IMG/VR virus record: IMGVR_UViG_3300049811_000206 | Coordinates: 1-51,406 of that record | Source of the DNA: a virus | Strand: one strand, 5' to 3' | Length of the DNA: 51,406 bases | In this document: piece after piece, positions 14,689-38,295 of the stretch | Position numbering within the stretch: the stretch's first letter is position 1 | Layout of the letters: every line of letters starts with the position of its first letter | Translations under genes and position numbers: made by a program | Notes under the pieces: model-generated | What the model was told of the DNA's origin: nothing | Database searches by the model: none | Seen by the model: only the letters and a program-made list of their open reading frames with translations

Positions 14689-14867
14689 TTGTCCACCTTT
14701 TCCGTGTACTCTTTGCATGCTTCAGCCAATGCGCTGAATATTTCTTGCCAATCGTTAGTAATACAGCGCAACCATTTGAAAATCACGTCATGCACTCCGT
14801 TTTGAATCACGCATAGTGTGTGCTTTTCACAGCTGTAGCACGAACGTGTTTTGCATACGCTATTCAT
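14685..14867 (-). CDS. Small Cys-rich hypothetical protein
   Basis: ATG 14867 overlaps the helicase TGA (ATGA). The protein begins MNSVCKTRSCYSCEKHTLC. Confidence 0.55.
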   Translation of the reverse strand: MNSVCKTRSCYSCEKHTLCVIQNGVHDVIFKWLRCITNDWQEIFSALAEACKEYTEKVDK

Positions 14868-17191
14868 ATAATGTTCCCCCACTTCAAAATGCTTTCGGCC
14901 ACGTTTGCTTTGCTTGTTAAGGCTTGCAGCACTTGGGCGTCAATCGTCCCCGGTGTCACAAGGTCAAGACGGGTTACCTTTTCGTGAATTGAACTTCCGC
15001 CACGGTAATTGCGGGCCTCGGCTTGCAGGTCATTTTCAAGCGAAAAATTACGGCTGAAAAAAATGCTGTAGCTGGAAGCCGTCAGGTTGACACCAACGCC
15101 CCCACTGGCCTGATTGGCGATCATGACCCGGCATTTGGGATCATTCTGAAACATGTCAATATTGGCTTGGCGTTCCTTGCCCGTGACTTCCCCGTGCAAT
15201 TGGGTGTAACCCAGCCCCAGCTTTTCACACACCTGGCGAATAACAGCATAATTTGCATGGAAAACGGCCCACACAATCACCTTGTGGTTGGGGGCAATAT
15301 CTTCCAGCAAGTCAGCAAGGGCCGCGATTCGTGGGCAATCGTCAAAAACCACTTCGGTGCCGTCTTCCGCCTTGAGGAATCCGCTGACGATTTGCTGTAA
15401 GCGCAACCCCTTGGTGATTGCCAGCTGTGCGGTGCACACCTTTGATTTTAGGAACGCCACGAAATCTTTTTTCATTTGTTCATAGGCGCGGGCTTGGTCA
15501 GGTGCCATTTCCACTTCAACCGTGTCACGCACCAGCGGGGGCAAATCCAAGCACTCGGATTTCACCACGCGCATGGCTTTGCGATACATTAGCCTACCCA
15601 ATTCGTCACTTGCCCCGGCACGTATGCGCCAATCAGGGAAATAACGTTGCGCGGGCATACCAGCGTTTTTGTCGAAAAAATACTTGGCGCGGAAGGAAAA
15701 GAAATTGTGCCCGAAGGTTTCCCCCTTGTCCAAAATCTTGAATTGCTGGAAGGCGTCCATGGGGCTGTTCAAGATAGGCGTTCCCGACAAAATCCACCGA
15801 TACCGCGTCAGGCTGGCCAGCTGAAAGCATGTTTTTGACCGCTTTGACTGCGGGCTTTTCATGCGTTGGCTTTCGTCAACGGCCATGGCCTCGGGCTGCC
15901 ACTTCTCGAAGGCTTCCACCATGGGCTTCATGGTCAAGGTTTCAAAATTGGTAATGAACACGGCGTTGGGATCGGCGGCAATGACTTTGTTGAACAGGTC
16001 AAGCCGCTTTTTGCCGCTACCCTTGAGCACAAAAACCCGGTCACTTATCTTTGAATTTTTCTGGAATTCACGTGCCCAGTTTTCGCATACCACCACTGGG
16101 CAAATAATTAGAGTGCGCAAAATTCTGGAATGCGCCAAGCATTTCCAGCGAAGCAAATCAATTGCCACCCTTGTCTTTCCCGAATTATGCACCACTAGAC
16201 CATTTGCAACAAAATTGTGGTGCGGTGCCTTACAGCAAATGTCATAGGTCATTTCCACGCCAACACGCTTGATTTCTGTCACGGTACGCCACGAAATAAC
16301 ACCATGCTTAAAATTCGCATATCCTTTGCTGTGCCCGCTTATATGTTCTTTAGCAGTAAGCAGCTGCAAGTTTTCCAGCGCATTATTTCGAGGATTTTTG
16401 TCAATGTGATGTACGTGAAATTTTTTGGGATCAATGTATTTTAGTTTGTTTGGTTTCTTTGTTTCTGCCTGAAACTGCGCCAGTGTAAGCCCATTCAAAT
16501 GGGCTTCAAAAATAGCGCGGTGCTTTTCCAATCTTTTGCAGCGTCGCCCATTGTACGGATGCGGAAATATCCGTGCATACTTGTGATGAATTCCCACTTG
16601 AATATCGGAATAGCGCGGTTTTTCTTTTTTTGCCCCGCTTCCAGTTTTCATGTGCCGGTGTAGGTAATCAAACGCAAGTTTTGTTTCTCCCACACGCAAG
16701 TCACGCAGTGGCTTGAATCCATCTTGGGTTAAGAATAGGTGGTCCGCTGTAGCTCGCAAAGGATTTCCATGATTCGTTGTGGATACGCTGAAAACTTCCT
16801 TTTCCCCGCTTCGCACAACCGCTTCAATTTCATTCAGACAAACATGGTCACCATTAAATGACCTGACATAGGTTTTAATTCCCGTATCCCATGCGTCACG
16901 TGTTCCCATTTCTACGTTGTTAAAATTTCGATATAGCTGTTCCAGCGTAATTTCAAACGCCTTTCCTGCACGATTCACCCTAATCAATGCGTCATGGGTA
17001 AGACACCCGGCTTCAAACAGTAAGGCATATTCTGGCATTTGCTTTGCTACTTCAAATGCTCGCCTCTGATGTTCCCACGGGGGGACTAGGAAGAAATTGG
17101 CAGGGGTATCGGTCACAGGTTTCCTTTCGGCCTCGGGCTTCAGATAGGGGCCGCGTTGCACTTGGTTTCCAAATCGAAATGGGCCACTCAT
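14864..17191 (-). CDS. SNF2-family (DEAD/H-like) helicase interrupted by an intein
   Basis: The exteins read ...LLFEAG + SGKTRVAIDL (Walker A GSGKT after splicing), then AVDESQ (box II), ILSGTP and C-terminal SNF2 motifs (QASGGVGVNLT, QAEARNYR). Residues 63-336 are the intein. Confidence 0.9.
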   Translation of the reverse strand: MSGPFRFGNQVQRGPYLKPEAERKPVTDTPANFFLVPPWEHQRRAFEVAKQMPEYALLFEAGCLTHDALIRVNRAGKAFEITLEQLYRNFNNVEMGTRDAWDTGIKTYVRSFNGDHVCLNEIEAVVRSGEKEVFSVSTTNHGNPLRATADHLFLTQDGFKPLRDLRVGETKLAFDYLHRHMKTGSGAKKEKPRYSDIQVGIHHKYARIFPHPYNGRRCKRLEKHRAIFEAHLNGLTLAQFQAETKKPNKLKYIDPKKFHVHHIDKNPRNNALENLQLLTAKEHISGHSKGYANFKHGVISWRTVTEIKRVGVEMTYDICCKAPHHNFVANGLVVHNSGKTRVAIDLLRWKCLAHSRILRTLIICPVVVCENWAREFQKNSKISDRVFVLKGSGKKRLDLFNKVIAADPNAVFITNFETLTMKPMVEAFEKWQPEAMAVDESQRMKSPQSKRSKTCFQLASLTRYRWILSGTPILNSPMDAFQQFKILDKGETFGHNFFSFRAKYFFDKNAGMPAQRYFPDWRIRAGASDELGRLMYRKAMRVVKSECLDLPPLVRDTVEVEMAPDQARAYEQMKKDFVAFLKSKVCTAQLAITKGLRLQQIVSGFLKAEDGTEVVFDDCPRIAALADLLEDIAPNHKVIVWAVFHANYAVIRQVCEKLGLGYTQLHGEVTGKERQANIDMFQNDPKCRVMIANQASGGVGVNLTASSYSIFFSRNFSLENDLQAEARNYRGGSSIHEKVTRLDLVTPGTIDAQVLQALTSKANVAESILKWGNII
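16184..17005 (-). mobile_element. Intein (274 aa) with an HNH homing-endonuclease domain, inserted in the helicase P-loop
   Basis: Block A is CLTHDALIRV (Cys1 codon at 17003-17005) and block B is ATADHLFLT. The HNH motif is FHVHHIDKNPRNNALENLQLLTAKEH. Block G is HNFVANGLVVHN followed by +1 Ser (Asn codon at 16184-16186). Confidence 0.85.
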
Positions 17192-18848: not shown

Positions 18849-18864
18849 TCGGCTGCCCTCCGAA

Positions 18865-18881
18865 ATTTTGTTGAACATAAT
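18865..18881. promoter_or_regulatory. 17-bp palindromic element, copy 1 (ATTTTGTTGAACATAAT)
   Basis: It lies in the divergent intergenic region between 18848(-) and 19076(+), 16 nt upstream of ATG 18848. It is identical to copy 4. Confidence 0.65.
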
Positions 18882-19075
18882 GCAACCACAACGCCTAGCA
18901 CAAATGCAAGCAATCCGCAAACCCAAACCCCGGAAAAAGAAAAACACCCGAGGTAATTCAGAGGTTACCAGCCGCCCCTTGACAGCCCCCCACGCATGCG
19001 TGGCATCGTGGCAAACACTAGCGCCACCTATAGGTGAAAAAAATTTGCACACGTTCGTGCGTGGGGATTGCTGAA

Positions 19076-21505
19076 ATGCTTCAAATCCTGGGGATTCGTG
19101 ACTACACGACAGCCGAAGGCGAAGTGAAAAAGCGCGATGCGTTTTTTCAAAACAATTGGCGTGCGCCAAGTGTTGCCGATTTGTTCAAAAACCTTGACGC
19201 CCACCTTGCCAAAATTCCCGAGGATGCACGGTGGAATTTATACTACACGGCAGCCAATTGCGGGGACGGCAAGCGCGAATTCAAGGAACAACACGTTTTC
19301 GCTTTCGACATTGACGGCATTGACGTGAACCGCGCCCGCGACTATGTGTCAATCATTTGCGCCACGCTTGGCGTGAAGCCCGAGGAAACGGGCACCGTGA
19401 TGACCGGCCACGGGCTGCAATTGCTGATTGGCCTGAAAAACCCAATCACTCGCGCCGCCTGGTTTCGTGAGACAAAGCCCCACTATGTTTTGGTGTTGCG
19501 CAAAATCACGGAAGCCTTGAAAGCCCACGGGCTAAAGTGTGACGCTGACGCTTCGGTGTATGACCACAGGCGTCTTTTGCGTCTGCCCGGAACAATCAAT
19601 GATAAGTCATATAAAGGCTTGCCGCGCACGCGGGCCGAATTGCTTCAGGCCAATATCGTCCCCGTTGAATTCGACATTGGGGCCTTGGCAGGGGCACCAG
19701 CGGAAACGCCGGAACACACGGTGCCCGCCGATTTCATGAAGCGTTATCCAAAGGTGGACACCCCTGCCGTGCTCGCAGGGTGCGAATTTCTGAAATGGAC
19801 CAAAGACAACGCGGCCAAGGTCAATGAGCCGCAATGGTATGCAGCCCTTTCGGTTTTGTCGCGTTGCGAAAATGGCCCCGTTCTTTGTCATGACTACTCG
19901 AAAACCCACCCTGGTTATACCGCCCAAGAAACGCAGCTGAAGATTGACCAAGCCCTAAACGCCAGCGGGCCACGCACGTGCAAGGGCATTGGGACCATGT
20001 GGGACGGGTGCAAGGATTGCCCGAATTTCGGCAAGGTCACCAGCCCAATCATGCTTCGCGGCGCGGACTATATCCGCACGGAAAGCACGGGTTTCCGCCA
20101 CGTGACCTTTGGCGAAGGGGGCAAGGTCACCATTGGCAAGCCTTGTTTTGAAGACTTGCTGAAGGCTTTTGAGCGCAAGCACCGATTCGTCACCATGGCC
20201 GCCAGCCGGATTGTTTACACGTGGACCGGGACGCATTACCAAGTCACCCACCGAAACGAAATCGAAGCGTTCGCACAAGAACAGGTCAGCCCGTCGCCTA
20301 CTATGTCCAATCGAAAAGAATTTGCCGACCTTGTGACGTGCTCCAATATCGTTTCGCCGGATTGGTTTGCCGAAAGCACTTGGCGCAAAATGAATTTCCT
20401 TAACGGTTGGCTTGACCTGACCACAATGACTTTCAACCCCCCAAGTGACCGGCTGGGGTTTCGCCATGTTTTGCCCTACAATTATGAACCCACGGCCACG
20501 TGCCCCCATTACCTTTCCCTTATGAACAACGTCACGGGCGGGGACAGTCAGCTACAGTCAATTTTGAACGAATATGCTGGGTATGCCCTTTCCAATGACA
20601 AGATTTGGCTTCAAAAGGCTTTGGTGCTTTTGGGCGAAGGCTCAAACGGCAAATCAACGTGGCTGAACATTCTGAAGGCGCTTGTGGGCGAGGGTAACTA
20701 TTCCAGCCTTGGCTTGAAAGATTTTGAAAGCGAATACTGCCGCCAAATGCTGGACGGCAAGCTTTTCAACGTGGCCGAAGAAATGCCCCGCCAGCGGCTT
20801 GAAACAGCCAATTTCAAAGCGATCAGCACAGGCGGAACCGTCCAAGCCCGCAAGCCTTACCAAGAACCATATAGCTTCACGAACCGGGCCAAAATGCTAT
20901 TTGCCTGCAACACCCTGCCCGAAACTCAAGACACCAGCGGGGGGTTTTTCCGCCGTTTCCTGATTGTGCCGTTCAACCAAGAATTCAGCGAAGCACGCGG
21001 CAACCTTGACCCGTTCATTGAAGACAAGGTGCTTGAGGAATTGCCCGGTGTGCTCAACACCGTGCTTTCGGCCTACCGTGCCTTGATTCTGAAAAAGCGT
21101 TTCACGGAATCGGAATTGACGAAAGAAGCCCTTTCCAGCTACCAAGACGCCCAAGACACGGTGCTTTCCTGGTGGAATGAATACGTGAGCGTGAACACCA
21201 ACGGCGGAATGGAAACCCAGGCCAGCCGAATCGGTGACATGTATGATTCCTATGTGCGAATCACCAAGGCCAACGGCCAAGCCCCGGTGAACAACAAATG
21301 GTTTGGCCGCCAGCTTAGTTCATTGCTTCCAAACTATCGGCGTCATTACTCCGAAATGTGGGACAAGCAAATGCGCATGAAAATCAGAATCCTGAAAGGC
21401 GTGACTTTCGTGGATGCGGCAGCCCTTGCCTCGGGTGCGCGTCCGGCTTTCAAGCTGGAAGAATGCACGCCCCTGCCCGAAATGTCCCTTGCCATTCCCA
21501 TGTAA
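19076..21505 (+). CDS. Bifunctional AEP primase-polymerase / D5-P4-family SF3 helicase
   Basis: AEP motifs are FAFDIDGID, GHGLQLLIGL and LLRLPGTIN. The helicase has Walker A LLGEGSNGKST, and NRAKMLFACNTLPETQDTSGGFFRRFLIVPF is typical of the D5/P4 primase C-terminal domain. An in-frame GTG at 19034 is possible. Confidence 0.9.
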   Translation: MLQILGIRDYTTAEGEVKKRDAFFQNNWRAPSVADLFKNLDAHLAKIPEDARWNLYYTAANCGDGKREFKEQHVFAFDIDGIDVNRARDYVSIICATLGVKPEETGTVMTGHGLQLLIGLKNPITRAAWFRETKPHYVLVLRKITEALKAHGLKCDADASVYDHRRLLRLPGTINDKSYKGLPRTRAELLQANIVPVEFDIGALAGAPAETPEHTVPADFMKRYPKVDTPAVLAGCEFLKWTKDNAAKVNEPQWYAALSVLSRCENGPVLCHDYSKTHPGYTAQETQLKIDQALNASGPRTCKGIGTMWDGCKDCPNFGKVTSPIMLRGADYIRTESTGFRHVTFGEGGKVTIGKPCFEDLLKAFERKHRFVTMAASRIVYTWTGTHYQVTHRNEIEAFAQEQVSPSPTMSNRKEFADLVTCSNIVSPDWFAESTWRKMNFLNGWLDLTTMTFNPPSDRLGFRHVLPYNYEPTATCPHYLSLMNNVTGGDSQLQSILNEYAGYALSNDKIWLQKALVLLGEGSNGKSTWLNILKALVGEGNYSSLGLKDFESEYCRQMLDGKLFNVAEEMPRQRLETANFKAISTGGTVQARKPYQEPYSFTNRAKMLFACNTLPETQDTSGGFFRRFLIVPFNQEFSEARGNLDPFIEDKVLEELPGVLNTVLSAYRALILKKRFTESELTKEALSSYQDAQDTVLSWWNEYVSVNTNGGMETQASRIGDMYDSYVRITKANGQAPVNNKWFGRQLSSLLPNYRRHYSEMWDKQMRMKIRILKGVTFVDAAALASGARPAFKLEECTPLPEMSLAIPM

Positions 21506-23065: not shown

Positions 23066-23130
23066 GCGTGCCCCCTTCGTTTGAATCGCGTTTGGGACCA
23101 TCCCGCCCGCCTTATAAATATCCTTTCGGT

Positions 23131-23147
23131 ATTTTGTTGAACAAAAT
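23131..23147. promoter_or_regulatory. 17-bp palindromic element, copy 2 (perfect: ATTTTGTTGAACAAAAT)
   Basis: Perfect 8+1+8 palindrome, upstream of the 23065(-) gene. Confidence 0.65.
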
Positions 23148-23180: not shown

Positions 23181-23195
23181 GGTGCGCTTGTAATT

Positions 23196-23212
23196 ATTTT
23201 GTTGAACAGAAT
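23196..23212. promoter_or_regulatory. 17-bp palindromic element, copy 3 (ATTTTGTTGAACAGAAT)
   Basis: One mismatch to the perfect palindrome; 65 bp centre-to-centre from copy 2. Confidence 0.6.
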
Positions 23213-23937: not shown

Positions 23938-24234
23938 TTATGGGCGTTGTTCTAAGCTTTTTTCCCATTCAGGAATAAACGCAAAGTGCGTGCTACCTGT
24001 GGCATACACCCACCCCGCACTTGAAAGCGTTGGCTCGTCTTCGCACCACACCCACCTACCAAATGAATCACGAACCAAAAACCTAGCCCACACCGGGGCG
24101 CTTTCCCACGCTGGTTTTTGCATGAGGGGTGCGGCGTCTTCCCATCGGCACCAATCACCAAAAGCATGTGGGCGCATTTCAATCCATTGTTCATTTGGAA
24201 GAAACTGAGCATACATTTTAAAACGCGCAATCAT
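23938..24234 (-). CDS. Hypothetical Trp-rich protein
   Basis: ATG 24234 overlaps the upstream TGA (ATGA). The ORF track start is 24255. Confidence 0.55.
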   Translation of the reverse strand: MIARFKMYAQFLPNEQWIEMRPHAFGDWCRWEDAAPLMQKPAWESAPVWARFLVRDSFGRWVWCEDEPTLSSAGWVYATGSTHFAFIPEWEKSLEQRP

Positions 24235-24443
24235 GCTTCGGGTTCCAATTCCCATGCCCGCAGGCGGTCACCAGCGGTGATTTCCCGAATGATTTTTTGG
24301 CGCAGGTCAATGGAGCGCTGCACGGCACTTTCACCCTTGGCGTTTGGCACGTGGTTTGAATCACTTTGGGCCAGCACTGCCGTGCGCAATGCCAGGGCGT
24401 TTTGGATTGCCACCAAGTCTTCACGGGATAGGTTTACTTGCAT
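24231..24443 (-). CDS. Hypothetical protein
   Basis: ATG 24443 is preceded by AGGGGGA. The ORF track start at 24458 is TTG. Confidence 0.55.
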   Translation of the reverse strand: MQVNLSREDLVAIQNALALRTAVLAQSDSNHVPNAKGESAVQRSIDLRQKIIREITAGDRLRAWELEPEA

Positions 24444-24451
24444 ACGTCCCC

Positions 24452-24664
24452 CTAGCAATCAAACACGAAATGCCTGTGCGTCTTGGGATTGTCAGCGCAG
24501 GCAACAGGTGCGCATTCTTCCCGCGTGGAAAGTGACCAACCGTTTTCCGTGCCACACGGGCGCATGCTGTTCACCTTGGCAACAAAGGCGGGCAATTCCT
24601 CGTCTGTGGCGTCCGAACACACCCACAACCCAAGCATTTGTTCCCCCAGGATTTCAATTTGCAT
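24452..24664 (-). CDS. Hypothetical protein
   Basis: ATG 24664 is preceded by GGGAAGGAAA. The ORF track start at 24682 is GTG. Confidence 0.55.
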   Translation of the reverse strand: MQIEILGEQMLGLWVCSDATDEELPAFVAKVNSMRPCGTENGWSLSTREECAPVACADNPKTHRHFVFDC

Positions 24665-24848
24665 TTCGTTTTTCCTTCCCACTCAAAAAGGATTTCAGCA
24701 TTTTCAATGCGTCCCACGCATTCACAGCGCAAAACATGACGATTAGCCCCAGCGCAAGGCTTCCCCACAGGAAAGACCACACAAGCCAAACAAGCCGCGC
24801 AATGCTCAAGTCAGTACACACAAGCGCCCCCGATATTTTGTTGAACAT
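24654..24848 (-). CDS. Small membrane protein, first gene of a minus-strand operon
   Basis: The TM segment is LVWLVWSFLWGSLALGLIVMFCAV. GTG 24821 follows GGGGG and is probably the true start. ATG 24848 lies inside palindrome copy 4. Confidence 0.5.
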   Translation of the reverse strand: MFNKISGALVCTDLSIARLVWLVWSFLWGSLALGLIVMFCAVNAWDALKMLKSFLSGKEKRNAN

Positions 24849-24851
24849 AAT
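24835..24851. promoter_or_regulatory. 17-bp palindromic element, copy 4 (ATTTTGTTGAACATAAT)
   Basis: Identical to copy 1. It lies 13 nt upstream of GTG 24821 on the minus strand. A TTGACA hexamer sits about 33 nt further upstream on that strand. Confidence 0.65.
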
Positions 24852-25027
24852 TCACGCCACGCTAAAGCATATTTGCCTAGAAGGTGTCAACCAAATTTTT
24901 GTAGTCAGTGTGGCGCTTGGATTCGAGGGGCAAAATATAGTCCGCCCCATGACTATAATATAGCCCGCTGGGACTATAGCCGGGGCGGGGTGTTTCAGGA
25001 ATGAACATGGTTGGAAAGTGGAACAGG

Positions 25028-25481
25028 GGGCCGGGGTTGGGTGCTACCCAATTTCAGCCCTGGCATTTAACTGCGCACCAGCGCCCCCAGCCCCTACCAA
25101 GGGAAACCAAAGCCTAACGTTTGTCGGGGCGGGAACACAATCCAATAATAGACAAAAAAAGAAGCTATTAATGGATAGTGGGCCGGGGTTCGAAGGATAC
25201 CAGCGGGGGGAAGTTTTGGGCTGGAATTTGGACGATTTTGGGGCCGGGGATCGGGGGAAAAACCAGCGCTGGGGGAAACACGGGGTTTTCTAAGTGCTTG
25301 ATTTGTAAGGAATGGCGTGTTTTGTGGCGTCGATTTTGGGTTTGAAAGGTAAGGGAAACCAGTGGGTTGAGCGAAAAAAGCTAACGTCGGTGTGCATTTT
25401 TTGTGCATGACTGGTATTAGTTAGCTGTTAAGGGGAATAAACGAACAAAATGGGCTTGGTAGCAAGGAAATTGGGCCGGGG
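25028..25481. repeat. Four dispersed copies of GGGCCGGGG in the non-coding hub
   Basis: Copies are at 25028-25036, 25180-25188, 25241-25249 and 25473-25481, all in the same orientation. Each is followed by (T/A)(T/C). Confidence 0.7.
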
Positions 25482-25513
25482 ACAAGGCCATTTTGTAACC
25501 CGTTGATTTTGTT

Positions 25514-25849
25514 CATTCCATCATTCCATGAACTTCCATCATTTTTTTGCTTCATGGAATGGAACTAACCAGCCGTTTTTTGGCTCTTTTTCGGGTTTTC
25601 CTTCCATCATTCCATGAAAGAGGGGGTATAGGTAACATTTTGAAACGCTGGTTTTTAGAGCGTGGTCCCACTGTATAAATATTGAACAACAACCACGATA
25701 AAATGCACCCTAAAACTACCCCTTATAGAGAATACATGGAATGTCGGAAGATGGCCCTTTTTGGAGGTTGTTTTGGTAATGATATTCGACACCTTCCAAC
25801 ATTCCATCATTTTGAGTTTTCATGGAAGGTTCTTGGAAGTTTCATGGAA
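25514..25849. repeat. Iteron-like array of TTCCAT(C/G)A in both orientations
   Basis: Exact plus-orientation copies start at 25516, 25524, 25534, 25602, 25610 and 25802. Exact inverted copies (TCATGGAA) start at 25552, 25820 and 25842. One-mismatch copies lie near 25557, 25734, 25794 and 25831. Confidence 0.8.
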
Positions 25850-25858
25850 GCACTTGCA

Positions 25859-25875
25859 TTTTTGTTGAACGTAAT
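25859..25875. promoter_or_regulatory. 17-bp palindromic element, copy 5 (TTTTTGTTGAACGTAAT)
   Basis: It lies 26 nt upstream of ATG 25902, the first gene of the plus-strand late block. TTGCAT sits immediately upstream. Confidence 0.55.
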
Positions 25876-25901
25876 GTTAGCTACTTTCGAGGGGGAAAAA
25901 T

Positions 25902-26219
25902 ATGAAACCGGAAACAATCGCCTTGCTGGCGGAATTCGAAAAATTCGTGTCCGCCGATCCGCGCCTTAAAGCGCTGTGGGCTGCCCTGCCCCAAGAAGCT
26001 GGGATAGCCCTGGGGAAAGCTGTGGAATACATGCCCCAGCTGAAACCGTCTTATTTCCATCAATGGTATTGCAAGCACGAATCCGACCGCTCGGGGCTTA
26101 CCCAGCGCCAAAGCTATCAGCTGTTTCAGCTGGGCTTGATGTTCCTTGACCAAGTGAGCCGGGGACGCTATTACGTGCCGCCGTTCGTGGCCGAAGGGGC
26201 TGCCAATGGGCAAGGATGA
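25902..26219 (+). CDS. Hypothetical protein
   Basis: GAGGGGGAAAAAT lies immediately upstream of ATG 25902. 105 aa. Confidence 0.65.
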   Translation: MKPETIALLAEFEKFVSADPRLKALWAALPQEAGIALGKAVEYMPQLKPSYFHQWYCKHESDRSGLTQRQSYQLFQLGLMFLDQVSRGRYYVPPFVAEGAANGQG

Positions 26220-26403
26220 TAAGCGGCCCGGAAGGAAACCCCTAAACCCTGGTGACCCCCTGGTGCACAAGGGGTTTCGTTTGCCGCGCACCTTGGTGCT
26301 TAGGCTTTCCAAGATGGCCTTGGACCACAAGCGTTCCGAAAGCGAATTTCTTAGGGAATTGCTTGAGGAAACCTTGAACAGGATTGAATCCAATGAAGGT
26401 TGA
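26206..26403 (+). CDS. Ribbon-helix-helix (CopG/MetJ-like) DNA-binding protein
   Basis: GAAGGGG RBS. GFRLPRTLVLRLSKMALDHKRSESEFLRELLEETL has a strand-helix-helix pattern. Confidence 0.65.
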   Translation: MGKDDKRPGRKPLNPGDPLVHKGFRLPRTLVLRLSKMALDHKRSESEFLRELLEETLNRIESNEG

Positions 26404-26620
26404 CGCGGTGAACATTGTGGTGGCGCTTGAGGATATGAAGGCGCACGCCCGAAAGCTTACATTCGCAGCCGCGCGGGCGATTTCCAAAGGTGAACACGGC
26501 GCTGCCGAATTCTTGGAACATGAAGCCAACGGGGTGGATTGGTGCATGCGGCGCTTGCGCCTCGCCATGGCAAAACCCCCCGCTGGGAAAGGTGCCCCAT
26601 GCCCGACAAATCGGAAATAA
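26393..26620 (+). CDS. Hypothetical protein
   Basis: ATG 26393 overlaps the end of the RHH gene. The ORF track start is 26384. Confidence 0.5.
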   Translation: MKVDAVNIVVALEDMKAHARKLTFAAARAISKGEHGAAEFLEHEANGVDWCMRRLRLAMAKPPAGKGAPCPTNRK

Positions 26621-26769
26621 ACAAAACGTGCCTCACCACATACGCCACACTTGTGGCGGTTGGGATCATGCTATTGATAGGCAGGTGCGGCGTAAGCCCC
26701 TGGTGGTTGCTTTCCATTCCGTTTTTCGTGTCGCACTTGGCCTTGGTTCTTGGTCGTTTTCGTGATTGA
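26599..26769 (+). CDS. Small two-TM membrane protein
   Basis: GGGAAAGG RBS precedes ATG 26599. TM segments are TTYATLVAVGIMLLIG and WWLLSIPFFVSHLALVLG. Confidence 0.5.
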   Translation: MPDKSEINKTCLTTYATLVAVGIMLLIGRCGVSPWWLLSIPFFVSHLALVLGRFRD

Positions 26770-26770
26770 T

Positions 26771-26968
26771 TTGGGCACATGTGCCCAAGTTATTTTCCCA
26801 ATGCAATCGGCATATTGTAATTTTCGCCTTGGAAGTTTGGGCACATTTTGGTCTAGTTTGGGCACAAATTGGGCACAAATTTCGGTGCTTTTTTCGTGGA
26901 AACGTTGACGGATTCCTACAAGGGTGCGATATTAAAGATATAACAAACGTTGGGCACACTTGGGCACA
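26771..26968. repeat. Array of seven TTGGGCACA boxes directly upstream of terS
   Basis: A perfect 18-bp palindrome TTGGGCACATGTGCCCAA lies at 26771-26788. Direct copies are at 26837, 26858, 26869, 26950 and 26960. The last copy ends 4 nt before ATG 26973. Confidence 0.85.
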
Positions 26969-26972
26969 TAAA

Positions 26973-27638
26973 ATGGAAAGTCAAGGAAATCAAGAGCTTA
27001 CAGTAAGGGGACAAAAGAAGTGGGATAAGCTGCGCGAAGAATGGCTTGCCAGCAATATGGACCCTTACGAATTCATGCGTGCCAAAAATATCAACATTAG
27101 GTTGGGCGGCGTTCGTCGCGTATTGGCCGAATGGATGAGTGTGTGCCCGGAAGACAAAAAGCCCCGGTTGCATCGTCCGGCCATGACGTGCTTCTACGAT
27201 CAGGTAATGGATTCCATAAAGAAGGAACAGGAAGGGAAGTTACCCAGCACGGCAGACTTGTGGAATTTATATCTTAGGTGGCGTCAGCAACAAAGTGGGC
27301 AGGATTACACCACAGCCGACAAGATTAGGATGCACCTGCACATTCTACTTGAAAAAGGTTTGACGGACGAAGGCACAAGCTACACCCCTACCGAATTGGC
27401 ACGCCTGGCGAACGTGGCGGAATCCATTCAAAGGATTCAACGCCTGGCGCTCGGCTTGACCACTGAAAACGTTGGAATGGAAACGCCACAAACCCACGTT
27501 GAAAAGGACGTTACCCCCGAGGAAAGCCCCCAAGCACAGGAAGCACGCATGCCGGTGTTCGTGGTGGAAATGTCGCGCGGCGGCAAGTTTGTCCGCTCAC
27601 GCCCGACCATGCAGCTGGCCCAAGCGGTAAGTGGTTAG
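26973..27638 (+). CDS. terS: Putative terminase small subunit
   Basis: It lies immediately upstream of terL. 221 aa with a helical N-terminus (KKWDKLREEWLASNMDPYEFMRAKNI) and an acidic/flexible C-terminus. The upstream part of the 26766 ORF is occupied by the repeat array and is unlikely to be coding. Confidence 0.55.
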   Translation: MESQGNQELTVRGQKKWDKLREEWLASNMDPYEFMRAKNINIRLGGVRRVLAEWMSVCPEDKKPRLHRPAMTCFYDQVMDSIKKEQEGKLPSTADLWNLYLRWRQQQSGQDYTTADKIRMHLHILLEKGLTDEGTSYTPTELARLANVAESIQRIQRLALGLTTENVGMETPQTHVEKDVTPEESPQAQEARMPVFVVEMSRGGKFVRSRPTMQLAQAVSG

Positions 27639-27667
27639 CGTTCAATAAACTACTGTTAATTGAACGC
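27638..27667 (+). other. Hairpin at the terS stop (9-bp stem)
   Basis: GCGTTCAAT (27638-27646) pairs with ATTGAACGC (27659-27667), with a 12-nt loop, followed by CTAGTTTT. Confidence 0.5.
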
Positions 27668-27673
27668 CTAGTT

Positions 27674-27714
27674 TTCAAAAACTTTTAACAAGTTTTATAA
27701 ATAGTTATTAGAAT
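27674..27714 (+). promoter_or_regulatory. AT-rich sigma70-like promoter candidates upstream of terL
   Basis: Two candidates are TTCAAA-N16-TATAAA (27674/27696) and TTAACA-N18-TAGAAT (27685/27709). This is the most AT-rich intergenic stretch I noticed by eye in the late block. Confidence 0.4.
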
Positions 27715-27732
27715 GCTTATCAGGGGGGTTTT

Positions 27733-29166
27733 TTGAACGGGGACGCAAAAGCACAAACGTCCCCCCCACCCCCCGCTGGGATTGTCCTGCGCCTTCCCCC
27801 CTTACATCCCCGTCAGGAAATTTTTGGGTTTTGGAATGAGGACAACCCCGAAGCGCAATGCTTGGTTGCCCCTTGTGGGACCAAGGCGGGGAAAAGTTTT
27901 GGTTCCAGCTGGTGGCTTGTCAAAGAAGCCATGGCAACGGCAAACCTGTATTGCGTTTGGTTGTCGCCCACATACCTGAAGGCAAAAATTGGTTACCGCT
28001 ATATGAAAAGCCTGTGCCATATCCCAGGCTACGTTTCATTTGTCGATAGCCGCATGGAAATCCATTTTGCCAATCGGTCATTCATTAAATTTCTGCATGG
28101 CCAAGACGCCGAAGTGACGGTGGAAGGGGAAGCGGTTGACCGCTTTGTTGTGGACGAAGCGGGGAAACAGACGGCACAGCTGTGGCATTCGCTGCTTACC
28201 ACAATCACCCAGACGCGCGGGCGAGGAATCATTACAGGAACCCCCCGTGGGTTCACTTGGTATTATGACCTGTTTCGTAAGGCAAAGGCGGGTGACCCGT
28301 TCTTTGTGTGGGCGCAATTCAGCACAGAGGATAGCCCTTTCATTGCCAAGGAAGCCATTGCCCAAGCCAAGCGCCTATTACCCAAGCCTCTGTATGACCA
28401 ATATTACCGGGCCATGTTCGTCAGCCTGTCCACGGTGTTCGGTGACCTTTCGGGAATTTGGAATGACCTACCCGTTGAAAATCAACGCCTTTGGTTTCAC
28501 CCGGACCCAGAAACCCGTTCCTTGGACACTTGCACGGGTGTAGATATAGCCAAGCAAAACGATTTCACGGTGTTTTCCACGGTCAACAGCAACGGGGAAA
28601 CCGTGGGCTTTTGCCGCTTCAAGGGCGGAAGCTACACGGAACAGGCACGAAAGCTTGCGAAATACTTGGAAGCCTTCAAGGAAGGTGACCGAAGCGTGCG
28701 ATATGACGCCACTGGCGTGGGTGTCGGCTTCGGGGACATGCTTGGTGAAATGGACCTGGACGCAAACGTGCGTGGGGTTACTTTCACCAACGCCAGCAAA
28801 TCCGAAATGGTTGTGAAGACAACCTTGGCTATTGAACAGGGCCGCTGGAAATGTCCGCGCCTTGAAGCTGTGGAACATGAGTTTTCAGCCCTCGAATTGC
28901 ACGTGACGCAATCCGGGCTTCATGCTTACCGCGCCCCCGAGGGTGACCACGATGACACGGTTATGTCATTCATGCTTTCAGTGTCCGGGGCGTTGGAATC
29001 CGCTGGTGCGGCGGACGCGGAAAGATTGCTAGAGGAAACGCTTGCGGGTGGGGGCCAGAAACGTGATACCCTTTCAAACTATGCTGCCCTTGCGTATGAC
29101 GATGACTTGACGCCACCCGAAGACGGGGACGCTGATTTTCTTGACGAAGATATGGGGGAATTATAA
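27733..29166 (+). CDS. terL: Terminase large subunit
   Basis: Walker A is CGTKAGKS and Walker B is RFVVDEAG. Nuclease-domain acidic motifs are TGVDIAKQNDFTVFS and GDHDDTVMSF. The TTG start at 27733 follows AGGGGGG. Confidence 0.9.
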   Translation: MNGDAKAQTSPPPPAGIVLRLPPLHPRQEIFGFWNEDNPEAQCLVAPCGTKAGKSFGSSWWLVKEAMATANLYCVWLSPTYLKAKIGYRYMKSLCHIPGYVSFVDSRMEIHFANRSFIKFLHGQDAEVTVEGEAVDRFVVDEAGKQTAQLWHSLLTTITQTRGRGIITGTPRGFTWYYDLFRKAKAGDPFFVWAQFSTEDSPFIAKEAIAQAKRLLPKPLYDQYYRAMFVSLSTVFGDLSGIWNDLPVENQRLWFHPDPETRSLDTCTGVDIAKQNDFTVFSTVNSNGETVGFCRFKGGSYTEQARKLAKYLEAFKEGDRSVRYDATGVGVGFGDMLGEMDLDANVRGVTFTNASKSEMVVKTTLAIEQGRWKCPRLEAVEHEFSALELHVTQSGLHAYRAPEGDHDDTVMSFMLSVSGALESAGAADAERLLEETLAGGGQKRDTLSNYAALAYDDDLTPPEDGDADFLDEDMGEL

Positions 29167-38221: not shown

Positions 38222-38256
38222 GGCCCCCTTGGTATTCCCAGGGGGGCCTTTTTTTG
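38222..38256 (+). terminator. Rho-independent terminator after the tail tube gene
   Basis: GGCCCCCTTGG pairs with CCAGGGGGGCC, followed by TTTTTTT (38249-38255). Confidence 0.8.
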
Positions 38257-38273
38257 TTACTGTTGAACAAAAT
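38257..38273. promoter_or_regulatory. 17-bp palindromic element, copy 6 (TTACTGTTGAACAAAAT)
   Basis: It directly abuts the terminator T-run and lies 22 nt upstream of ATG 38296. Confidence 0.55.
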
Positions 38274-38295
38274 TCAACCCAAGGGGGCTTGCGCT

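Follow-up and report, generated by a model that had tools for sequence, protein, structure and literature searches.

Nine exact copies of the octamer TTCCAT(C/G)A lie within positions 25516-25849, a non-coding stretch of the genome of an uncultured phage, and the block that contains them is well supported, as judged from its sequence, as an array of putative protein-binding sites of the iteron type. The reading is well supported since the sites occur far beyond chance, are arranged with two-fold symmetry, and have counterparts, built on a different motif, at the corresponding place in the only two relatives that cover the region. The DNA analysed, referred to here as the window, is the full 51,406 nucleotides of IMG/VR record IMGVR_UViG_3300049811_000206. 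The predicted role of the array is that of the core of a bidirectional replication origin of the SaPI/P4 type, a prediction to which about an even chance is given. The initial annotation of this DNA had offered origin iterons, a centromere-like element, or an array bound by a regulator as interpretations. Origin iterons are favoured among these since the phage encodes a primase-helicase of the PriRep5/P4-alpha type with a winged helix, no other block of the genome is as AT-rich, and the turn of the GC skew adjoins it. Regulator binding is a less probable alternative, and the centromere-like function is unsupported, as none of the roughly 40 proteins scanned matched a partition-ATPase family.

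Genomic setting

The window is a complete circular phage assembly in which the first 117 bases are repeated at the end. A blastn search with positions 24000-28000 against 50,697 phage records gave no match, and the closest match of the TerL protein in any isolated phage is 26% identical. Leftward genes occupy 7.7-24.85 kb and include those for a family A DNA polymerase, an exonuclease and an SNF2 helicase that is split by an intein. Amid these leftward genes, the primase-helicase gene (19034-21505) lies on the plus strand. The intein of the SNF2-family helicase gene (14864-17191, minus strand) contains an HNH endonuclease domain (Pfam Intein_splicing, HNH_3) and accounts for a low-GC patch near 16.3 kb. 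The rightward genes start at 25902 and encode, in order, a 105-amino acid protein, a ribbon-helix-helix (RHH) protein, two small proteins, TerS (26973), TerL (27733) and the portal protein. The gap between the leftward and rightward gene blocks measures 1050 bp and has the array in its right third, and the nearest leftward gene starts 670 bp from the array. No credible open reading frame, tRNA or Rfam match (E <= 1) was found in the interval 25516-25849. The first rightward gene serves as the anchor for comparisons with other phages:

25902..26219, plus strand: first rightward gene, encoding a 105-amino acid all-helical protein (gp105) of unknown function; anchors synteny with the relatives

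The gp105 family is very small, with four homologues among 5.8 billion proteins and five members after a profile search of the same set, and scans of viral, metagenome and genome contigs with the gp105 profile gave no match. The C-terminal half of the protein is invariant within the family and the N-terminal half is variable.

Repeats of the array

The copies of the motif in the interval are as follows:

25516, 25524, 25534, 25602, 25610 and 25802, plus strand: exact copies of TTCCAT(C/G)A
25552, 25820 and 25842, minus strand: exact copies of TTCCAT(C/G)A
25734, minus strand: one-mismatch copy, TTCCATGT
25794, plus strand: one-mismatch copy, TTCCAACA
25831, minus strand: one-mismatch copy, TTCCAAGA
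25557, minus strand: weak copy with two mismatches, TTCCATTC
25742, minus strand: weak copy with two mismatches, TTCCGACA

All nine exact copies had been placed at these coordinates and on these strands in the initial annotation, and its naive expectations of about 3 copies per genome and about 0.02 per interval are arithmetically correct. Its count of at least four one-mismatch copies in the interval was too high, as there are exactly three (25734, 25794 and 25831). Across the whole window TTCCATSA occurs 17 times versus 4.21 +/- 2.09 copies expected from dinucleotide-preserving shuffles. The maximum in a shuffled sequence was 11 copies, and none of the 100 shuffles reached 17 or more. Nine of the 17 genomic copies fall within 336 bp. 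The sixth position of the motif also accepts A, and with this relaxation (TTCCAWSA) 11 of the 26 copies in the genome are inside the block. An unbiased search for locally repeated 6-mers likewise placed the block at the top rank in the genome, with 11 of the 62 copies of TTCCAT located here. The motif extends beyond 8 bp, as the nine exact copies yield the longer form C-(A/C)-TTCCAT-(C/G)-A-(A/T).

Some short repeats of the array adjoin one another with a period of 8 bp, both as direct and as inverted copies (TTCCATCATTCCATGA), and there is a facing pair, TTCCATCA-N10-TCATGGAA, at 25534-25559, an arrangement that the initial annotation had noted. Two tandem doublets that had been reported as the same sequence are both present, but they are not identical since the doublet at 25600 reads CCTTCCATCATTCCATGAA and matches the doublet at 25514 at 18 of 19 positions. 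The exact 19-mer CATTCCATCATTCCATGAA was found in IMG/VR in two contigs, each with a single doublet in unrelated sequence, and these were dismissed as chance matches.

A second copy of the 25516-25849 array was not found elsewhere in the window. The only other non-coding site array in the window, designated array B, is at 26771-26968, and the remaining local k-mer clusters are confined to 40.7-41.9 kb within a long open reading frame.

Symmetry and base composition

The TTCCAWSA sites make up 14 sites in 334 bp when they are counted together with two weak copies (25557 and 25742), which were included only for their tandem register at mirrored positions and are not callable alone. The sites are divided into two clusters that flank a core free of copies:

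25516..25617: left site cluster with 7 sites, including the tandem doublets and the facing pair; 25516 (plus), 25524 (plus) and 25534 (plus) point toward the core, 25552 (minus) and 25557 (minus) point away from it, and 25602 (plus) and 25610 (plus) point toward it
25618..25733: copy-free core of 116 bp, 38.8% GC, in which all seven mirror-pair midpoints lie
25661..25697: central dyad CGTGGT-N25-ACCACG, with its midpoint at 25679, about which the array is symmetric
25667-25691: AT-rich loop of the dyad, 32% GC, containing TGTATAAAT
25734..25849: right site cluster with 7 sites, the mirror image of the left cluster; 25734 (minus) and 25742 (minus) point toward the core, 25794 (plus) and 25802 (plus) point away from it, and 25820 (minus), 25831 (minus) and 25842 (minus) point toward it

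Read from left to right, the orientations of the sites give the string >>><<>><<>><<<, which is its own reverse complement, with seven sites on each side of the core. The two members are opposite in orientation in all seven mirror pairs, and the midpoints of the pairs (25675.5-25682.5) lie within 7 bp of each other. Randomly oriented sites would produce a string of this kind with a probability of (1/2)^7, about 0.008. A site with two or fewer mismatches has a chance of about 0.012 per position and strand, and when the two weak sites are omitted there are five mirror pairs in which both sites are strong, plus two strong sites that are mirrored only by a weak copy. The innermost copies on both sides point at the core.

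The GC content of the block is 39.2% versus 53.1% for the genome, which makes it the lowest-GC stretch of 334 bp in the genome, and the twelve lowest-GC windows of that length all start at 25486-25586. The GC content of the core itself (39%) is only moderately low, and its AT content does not exceed that of the clusters that flank it. Folding z-scores for the core were weak and inconsistent (-1.7, -2.5 and +0.2 for the plus strand), and a structured RNA is therefore unsupported. A terminator-like hairpin followed by a T-run (AGCCGTTTTTTGGCT CTTTTT) is present on the plus strand at 25571-25595, in a gap inside the left cluster, and is not conserved in either of the two relatives described below.

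The array in related phages

Two rare relatives, L014 (JGI 3300042874) and L015 (SRR30303836), whose homologues are 59% and 60% identical to gp105, respectively, are the only ones that cover the array region. Their contigs are 1.4-3.1 kb long and do not include the primase-helicase gene. The TTCCAT array is absent from both. L014 has instead ten copies of GGTCAWSA, all of them within 325 bp (2286-2610), versus 0.41 expected in the contig. In L015, six of seven copies of GGWCAWSA are in the first 301 bases (about 300 bp), versus 0.20 expected. Sites at distances from the start codon of about -350 (minus), -305 (plus), -175 (minus), -115 (plus) and -95 (plus) are shared by all three phages. The copy-free core is 112-113 bp in L014 and L015 versus 116 bp in the window, and the inner copies face the core in all three. 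Equivalents of the core dyad occur at the same place, AGTGGTGT-N12-ACACCACT in L014 and GTGT-N12-ACAC in L015. Conservation in related phages had been suggested as a check on the array, and the outcome differs between its two aspects: the 8-mer itself is not conserved, but the architecture of the array at the syntenic position is.

The three phages share a site of the form NNN-CAWSA, in which one half is constant and the other is a variable triplet, TTC in the window and GGT or GGA in the relatives. This combination of a constant half with a swapped triplet points to a fast-evolving binder that is probably phage-encoded, with the architecture of its sites kept. L014 and L015 are 82% identical across the region, and yet their adjacent copies differ in the same way (GTTGACC to CTTGTCC), a pattern that indicates what appears to be concerted change under selection.

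Traces of more than one site type are visible in both relatives. Within positions 14-301 of L015, the four distal sites read GGACAAGA or GGACAACA and the proximal sites read GGTCAWGA, so that two site types occur together; L015 may be a recombinant or an intermediate in a shift of specificity. Positions 2385-2403 of L014 read TGGTCATCATTCCATCATTC, which places that phage's own motif, followed by a single TTCCATCA, at the slot occupied by TTCCATCATTCCATGA in the window. This segment may be a relic of the motif change or of recombination between specificity types.

Other candidates for comparison were less useful. Phages related through TerL at 52-57% identity (L001-L011 and L018-L025, from IMG/VR and JGI metagenomes) have a different synteny without the gp105/RHH gene pair or the array, and they were rejected as an informative comparison as their local repeats sit in coding sequence. 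DnaA boxes were likewise rejected as a conserved feature, since L014 has two perfect ones and the intergenic region of the window has none. The two perfect boxes of L014 (TTATCCACA) are inverted and are accompanied by two one-mismatch copies at 2028-2057, about 230 bp left of the array, in a segment with an extra open reading frame that is absent from the window.

Candidate binding proteins

Two phage proteins deserve consideration as binders of the array:

19034..21505, plus strand: primase-helicase, 823 amino acids, D5/SF3 family (Pfam DUF5906, D5_N and VapE-like)
26206..26403, plus strand: RHH protein, 65 amino acids, PHROG Arc/CopG-like

The primase-helicase matches the PHROG DNA primase family (1.7e-75), and searched as a single sequence it has one match among solved structures, PriRep5 of SaPI5 (PDB 7OLA, 6.8e-18). 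A profile of its family (30 members) matches PriRep5 over residues 384-766, including the C-terminal domain, with E = 2e-40. The C-terminal domain is a winged helix of the RFX type at about residues 690-800. A profile restricted to this domain matches RFX5 (1.8e-6), the C-terminal domain of PriRep5 (7.4e-4) and RFX1 (1.9e-3), and it matches the origin-binding domain of P4 alpha (1KA8) with E = 0.024, which is weak when taken alone. These assignments come from profile searches, which were used in place of a discarded single-sequence model of the C-terminus (pLDDT 41). From the end of the gene (21505) to the first site of the array (25516) is a distance of 4 kb; nothing iteron-like was found beside the primase-helicase gene, which is followed only by terminator-like hairpins. 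The primase-helicase is proposed as the probable binder of the array, for which it appears to be a better candidate than the RHH protein.

The RHH protein, whose match to Pfam RHH_1 (8.4e-4) is just below the cut-off, had been named as a possible binder, a proposal that is now disfavoured. Its DNA-reading beta-strand, VHKGFRLP, is identical in the window, L014 and L015, whose motifs are TTCCAWSA, GGTCAWSA and GGACAWSA, and the protein is thus unlikely to bind the array. This result also bears on the proposal that the array has a centromere-like partition function, or some other architectural one, and is bound by the RHH protein or by a ParB/ParR-type protein. The omega protein of pSM19035 and ParG of TP228 are RHH proteins with arrays of contiguous 7-8-bp units in direct and inverted orientation, and the array resembles these in its contiguous repeats of 8-bp period (TTCCATCATTCCATGA) and in the presence of an RHH gene 360 bp downstream. 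The resemblance ends with the match between protein and site, which fails in that the RHH protein adjoining the array is unchanged where the motif changes. In addition, no match to a ParA/ParM/TubZ-type partition ATPase or to an integrase family was obtained among the roughly 40 proteins scanned, a set short of every small open reading frame, and the gene content is that of a lytic phage. A partition or architectural role is accordingly very improbable.

The other protein encoded next to the array, gp105, was set aside as a binder, as its confident structural model (pLDDT 87) has no fold match in the PDB at E <= 0.001.

Comparison with known replication origins

The Rep proteins of SaPIs bind iterons of 5-6 nucleotides through a winged helix and load themselves (PMC9371898). 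In SaPI origins the 6-12 iterons are divided equally between the two flanks of an AT-rich centre; each flank has at least two, and those on opposite flanks point in opposite directions (PMC9371898). The phage described here shares with SaPIs an SF3 helicase of the initiator type with a C-terminal winged helix, which as in PriRep5 is fused to a primase. More than six short repeats occur beyond chance in a non-coding stretch, and they are split into two oppositely oriented sets about an AT-rich centre, although the core does not surpass the clusters in AT-richness. Variation of the repeat sequence between related elements is a further point of likeness. The sites here differ in length (8-11 bp versus 5-6 bp) and in their number and arrangement, there being 14 in a strict 3-2-2 / 2-2-3 mirror, and they are carried not by a satellite but by a 51-kb virus that encodes a family A DNA polymerase of its own. 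The array is also 4 kb from the helicase gene, whereas the SaPI origin is immediately 3' of rep. Adjacency to rep does not define the wider class of origins, however, since it is not known as a feature of P4.

In P4, the alpha protein binds octamer 'type I' repeats that occur in both orientations, at sites that do not adjoin the alpha gene. P4 alpha and ORF904 of pRN1 have the same helicase-plus-winged-helix layout, and in P4 alpha, as in the protein described here, primase, SF3 helicase and winged helix are combined in one polypeptide (PMC2777425). The P4 system differs in having a primase domain of the DnaG type and in needing a second distant site (crr), while the window has no second copy of the array.

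An origin has also been predicted for the lytic Enterococcus phage Abitsa (Efquatrovirus), which has a PriRep5-like self-loading helicase (PMC13517437). For Abitsa the prediction comprises seven iterons of 10 bp that surround an AT-rich region, in the place to which GC skew and gene direction point (PMC13517437). The chain of inference is the same as that followed here and likewise yields a prediction, but Abitsa belongs to an unrelated phage lineage and has fewer repeats.

GC skew and the proposed origin

The cumulative G-C curve has its maximum at 50.7 kb and declines from about there, across position 1, until it reaches its minimum at 24.9 kb; half of the 51.3-kb circle separates the two extremes. 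The minimum is situated about 0.8 kb to the left of the centre of the array, at the edge of a G-rich block, and coincides with the switch in gene orientation; the G-rich block contributes a shift of its own to the curve. Gene direction alone does not account for the skew, since the second switch in gene orientation is at 7.7 kb and not at 50.7 kb, and the plus-strand genes between 0 and 7.7 kb have a slightly negative skew. This suggests that part of the skew is independent of the coding strand, as would be expected for bidirectional replication from near 25 kb.

The G-rich block, which lies left of the array at 25028-25481, has runs of G3-G5 and contains four of the seven genomic copies of GGGCCGGGG, all on the plus strand (25028, 25180, 25241 and 25473). 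L014 has four copies of the GGTTCGGGG type at the equivalent place, and this repeat is conserved, unlike the motif of the array. It could bind a conserved factor or form a G-quadruplex or R-loop beside the putative origin. A second conserved element of the large intergenic region is a block containing ATTAATGGAT, at 25136-25185 in the window and 1340-1385 in L014. ATTAATGGAT occurs twice in L014, once as the palindrome ATCCATTAATGGAT.

If the array is an origin, the winged-helix C-terminal domain of the primase-helicase would read the 8-11-bp sites, and the mirror-image sites (3-2-2 / 2-2-3) would position two helicase assemblies so that they face the 116-bp AT-rich core. The central dyad with its 32%-GC loop (25661-25697) would then melt, the helicase would load itself at the core, and synthesis would be initiated bidirectionally by the primase domain. 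Replicon specificity would be set by the triplet with which the site begins (TTC, or GGT or GGA in the relatives), and the CAWSA half would be common to the lineage. More speculatively, occupancy of the origin may also affect the promoter of the packaging/late operon.

The putative promoter region of the rightward operon

It is possible, if somewhat doubtful, that the array is not an origin and serves instead as an operator array for a phage-specific factor that switches or throttles the rightward packaging/late operon. Dimers or oligomers of a phage protein would repress or activate the downstream promoter, and possibly a promoter within the core as well. Models for such a system include the early-late switch of phi29 controlled by p4 and multi-site repressor arrays. 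The location of the array fits this role, with leftward replication/early genes on one side of it and the rightward gp105-RHH-TerS-TerL operon on the other. A gap of 4 bp separates the end of the last copy (25849) from a -35-like TTGCAT (25854-25859), beyond which come a conserved palindrome and, at 25902, the start codon. Symmetric pairs of sites would suit dimeric regulators, and the re-specification of the motif among relatives is compatible with divergence of the repressor/operator immunity type too. Other observations are harder to reconcile with an operator. Fourteen sites over 334 bp, centred about 220 bp upstream of the gene, far exceed the known operators of single promoters, and the array is not placed between close divergent promoters, the leftward gene start being 670 bp off. 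A scan for sigma-70 promoters and terminators called no sigma-70-type promoter in the block, and promoter-like and terminator matches in the region were no commoner than in shuffles. The TGTATAAAT of the core resembles a -10 element, but this element is not kept in L014 and L015, which have TTTATACA. Finally, the only recognisable regulator encoded nearby is the RHH protein with its invariant DNA-reading strand, and gp105 has no match to a DNA-binding fold. Were the regulator reading true, the array would be an unusually large symmetric operator.

The palindrome next to the array appears to be an element of its own:

25858..25875: palindrome ATTTTTGTTGAACGTAAT, abutting the array, 27 bp before the first rightward gene; a separate conserved element of the operator/promoter type, with further matches at 18867, 23133, 23198, 24837 and 38262 (minus strand)

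The palindrome ATTTTGTTSAACAWAAT, 17-18 bp in length, is found in the window at 18864-18881, 23130-23147, 23195-23212, 24834-24851, 25858-25875 and, on the minus strand, at about 38255-38274. It is located beside the starts of operons, including that of the primase-helicase gene, and at both edges of the large intergenic region. The palindrome also occurs in L014, L015 and the distant relative L016, and 23 bases (TTTTGTTCAACAAAAAGCTTGAC) are identical between L016 and L014. One strand of it reads GTTCAACA, which is one base from the motif of the L014 array. Probably the palindrome serves a conserved regulator, which may be the invariant RHH protein, as an operator, or else it forms part of the promoters of this lineage. 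Judged from the sequences, the RHH protein seems better matched to this invariant palindrome than to the array.

Array B and DNA packaging

Another potential function for the array of TTCCAT(C/G)A repeats is that of a pac site, in which TerS would bind two sets of short repeats that flank the region to be cut, comparable to the hexamer sets found at pac of P1 or to pacL and pacR of SPP1. The array does consist of two repeat sets with a central region between them, it heads the operon in which TerS (26973) and TerL (27733) are encoded, and the circular assembly with its 117-bp overlap is compatible with headful packaging. Between the array and terS, however, are 1.1 kb and four genes, and array B, which is directly upstream of the terS start codon, is a better candidate for pac. 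A pac function for the TTCCAT(C/G)A array is thus quite improbable.

All seven copies of TTGGGCACA in the genome lie within array B (26771-26968). They consist of an abutting inverted pair at 26771/26780 followed by copies at 26837, 26858, 26869, 26950 and 26960, and a promoter-like sequence, TTGACG-N19-TATTAA, is located between copies. Array B ends 5 bp before the TerS start codon (26973), where no ribosome-binding site is visible. It is a candidate pac or TerS-binding site, or alternatively an operator. A short stretch of L015 that is homologous to array B has a different, GC-rich repeat (GGCGC).

Implications for phage replication

The array belongs to an already known class of elements, and the phage lineage that carries it is new and has no cultured relative. 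Replication origins are unknown for nearly all uncultured phages, and in this case sequence alone yields a testable candidate origin along with a testable pairing of initiator and sites. If the origin reading is true, the 334-bp block and the primase-helicase would be the minimal pair in which to look for replicon function.

A combination of the origin and promoter functions is unlikely but would have broader consequences. The same initiator-DNA complex would both fire the origin and gate the abutting packaging/late promoter, and the variable triplet would define mutually exclusive groups of replicon specificity among co-infecting relatives, with L015 as a recombinant or intermediate. Expression of the late genes would in that case be tied to replication.

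The comparison of the three phages suggests that the specificity of the sites is rewritten, with the CAWSA half held constant, the three-base half swapped in concert and the architecture fixed. These phages may be a convenient natural setting in which to study how winged-helix initiators co-evolve with the sites that they recognise.
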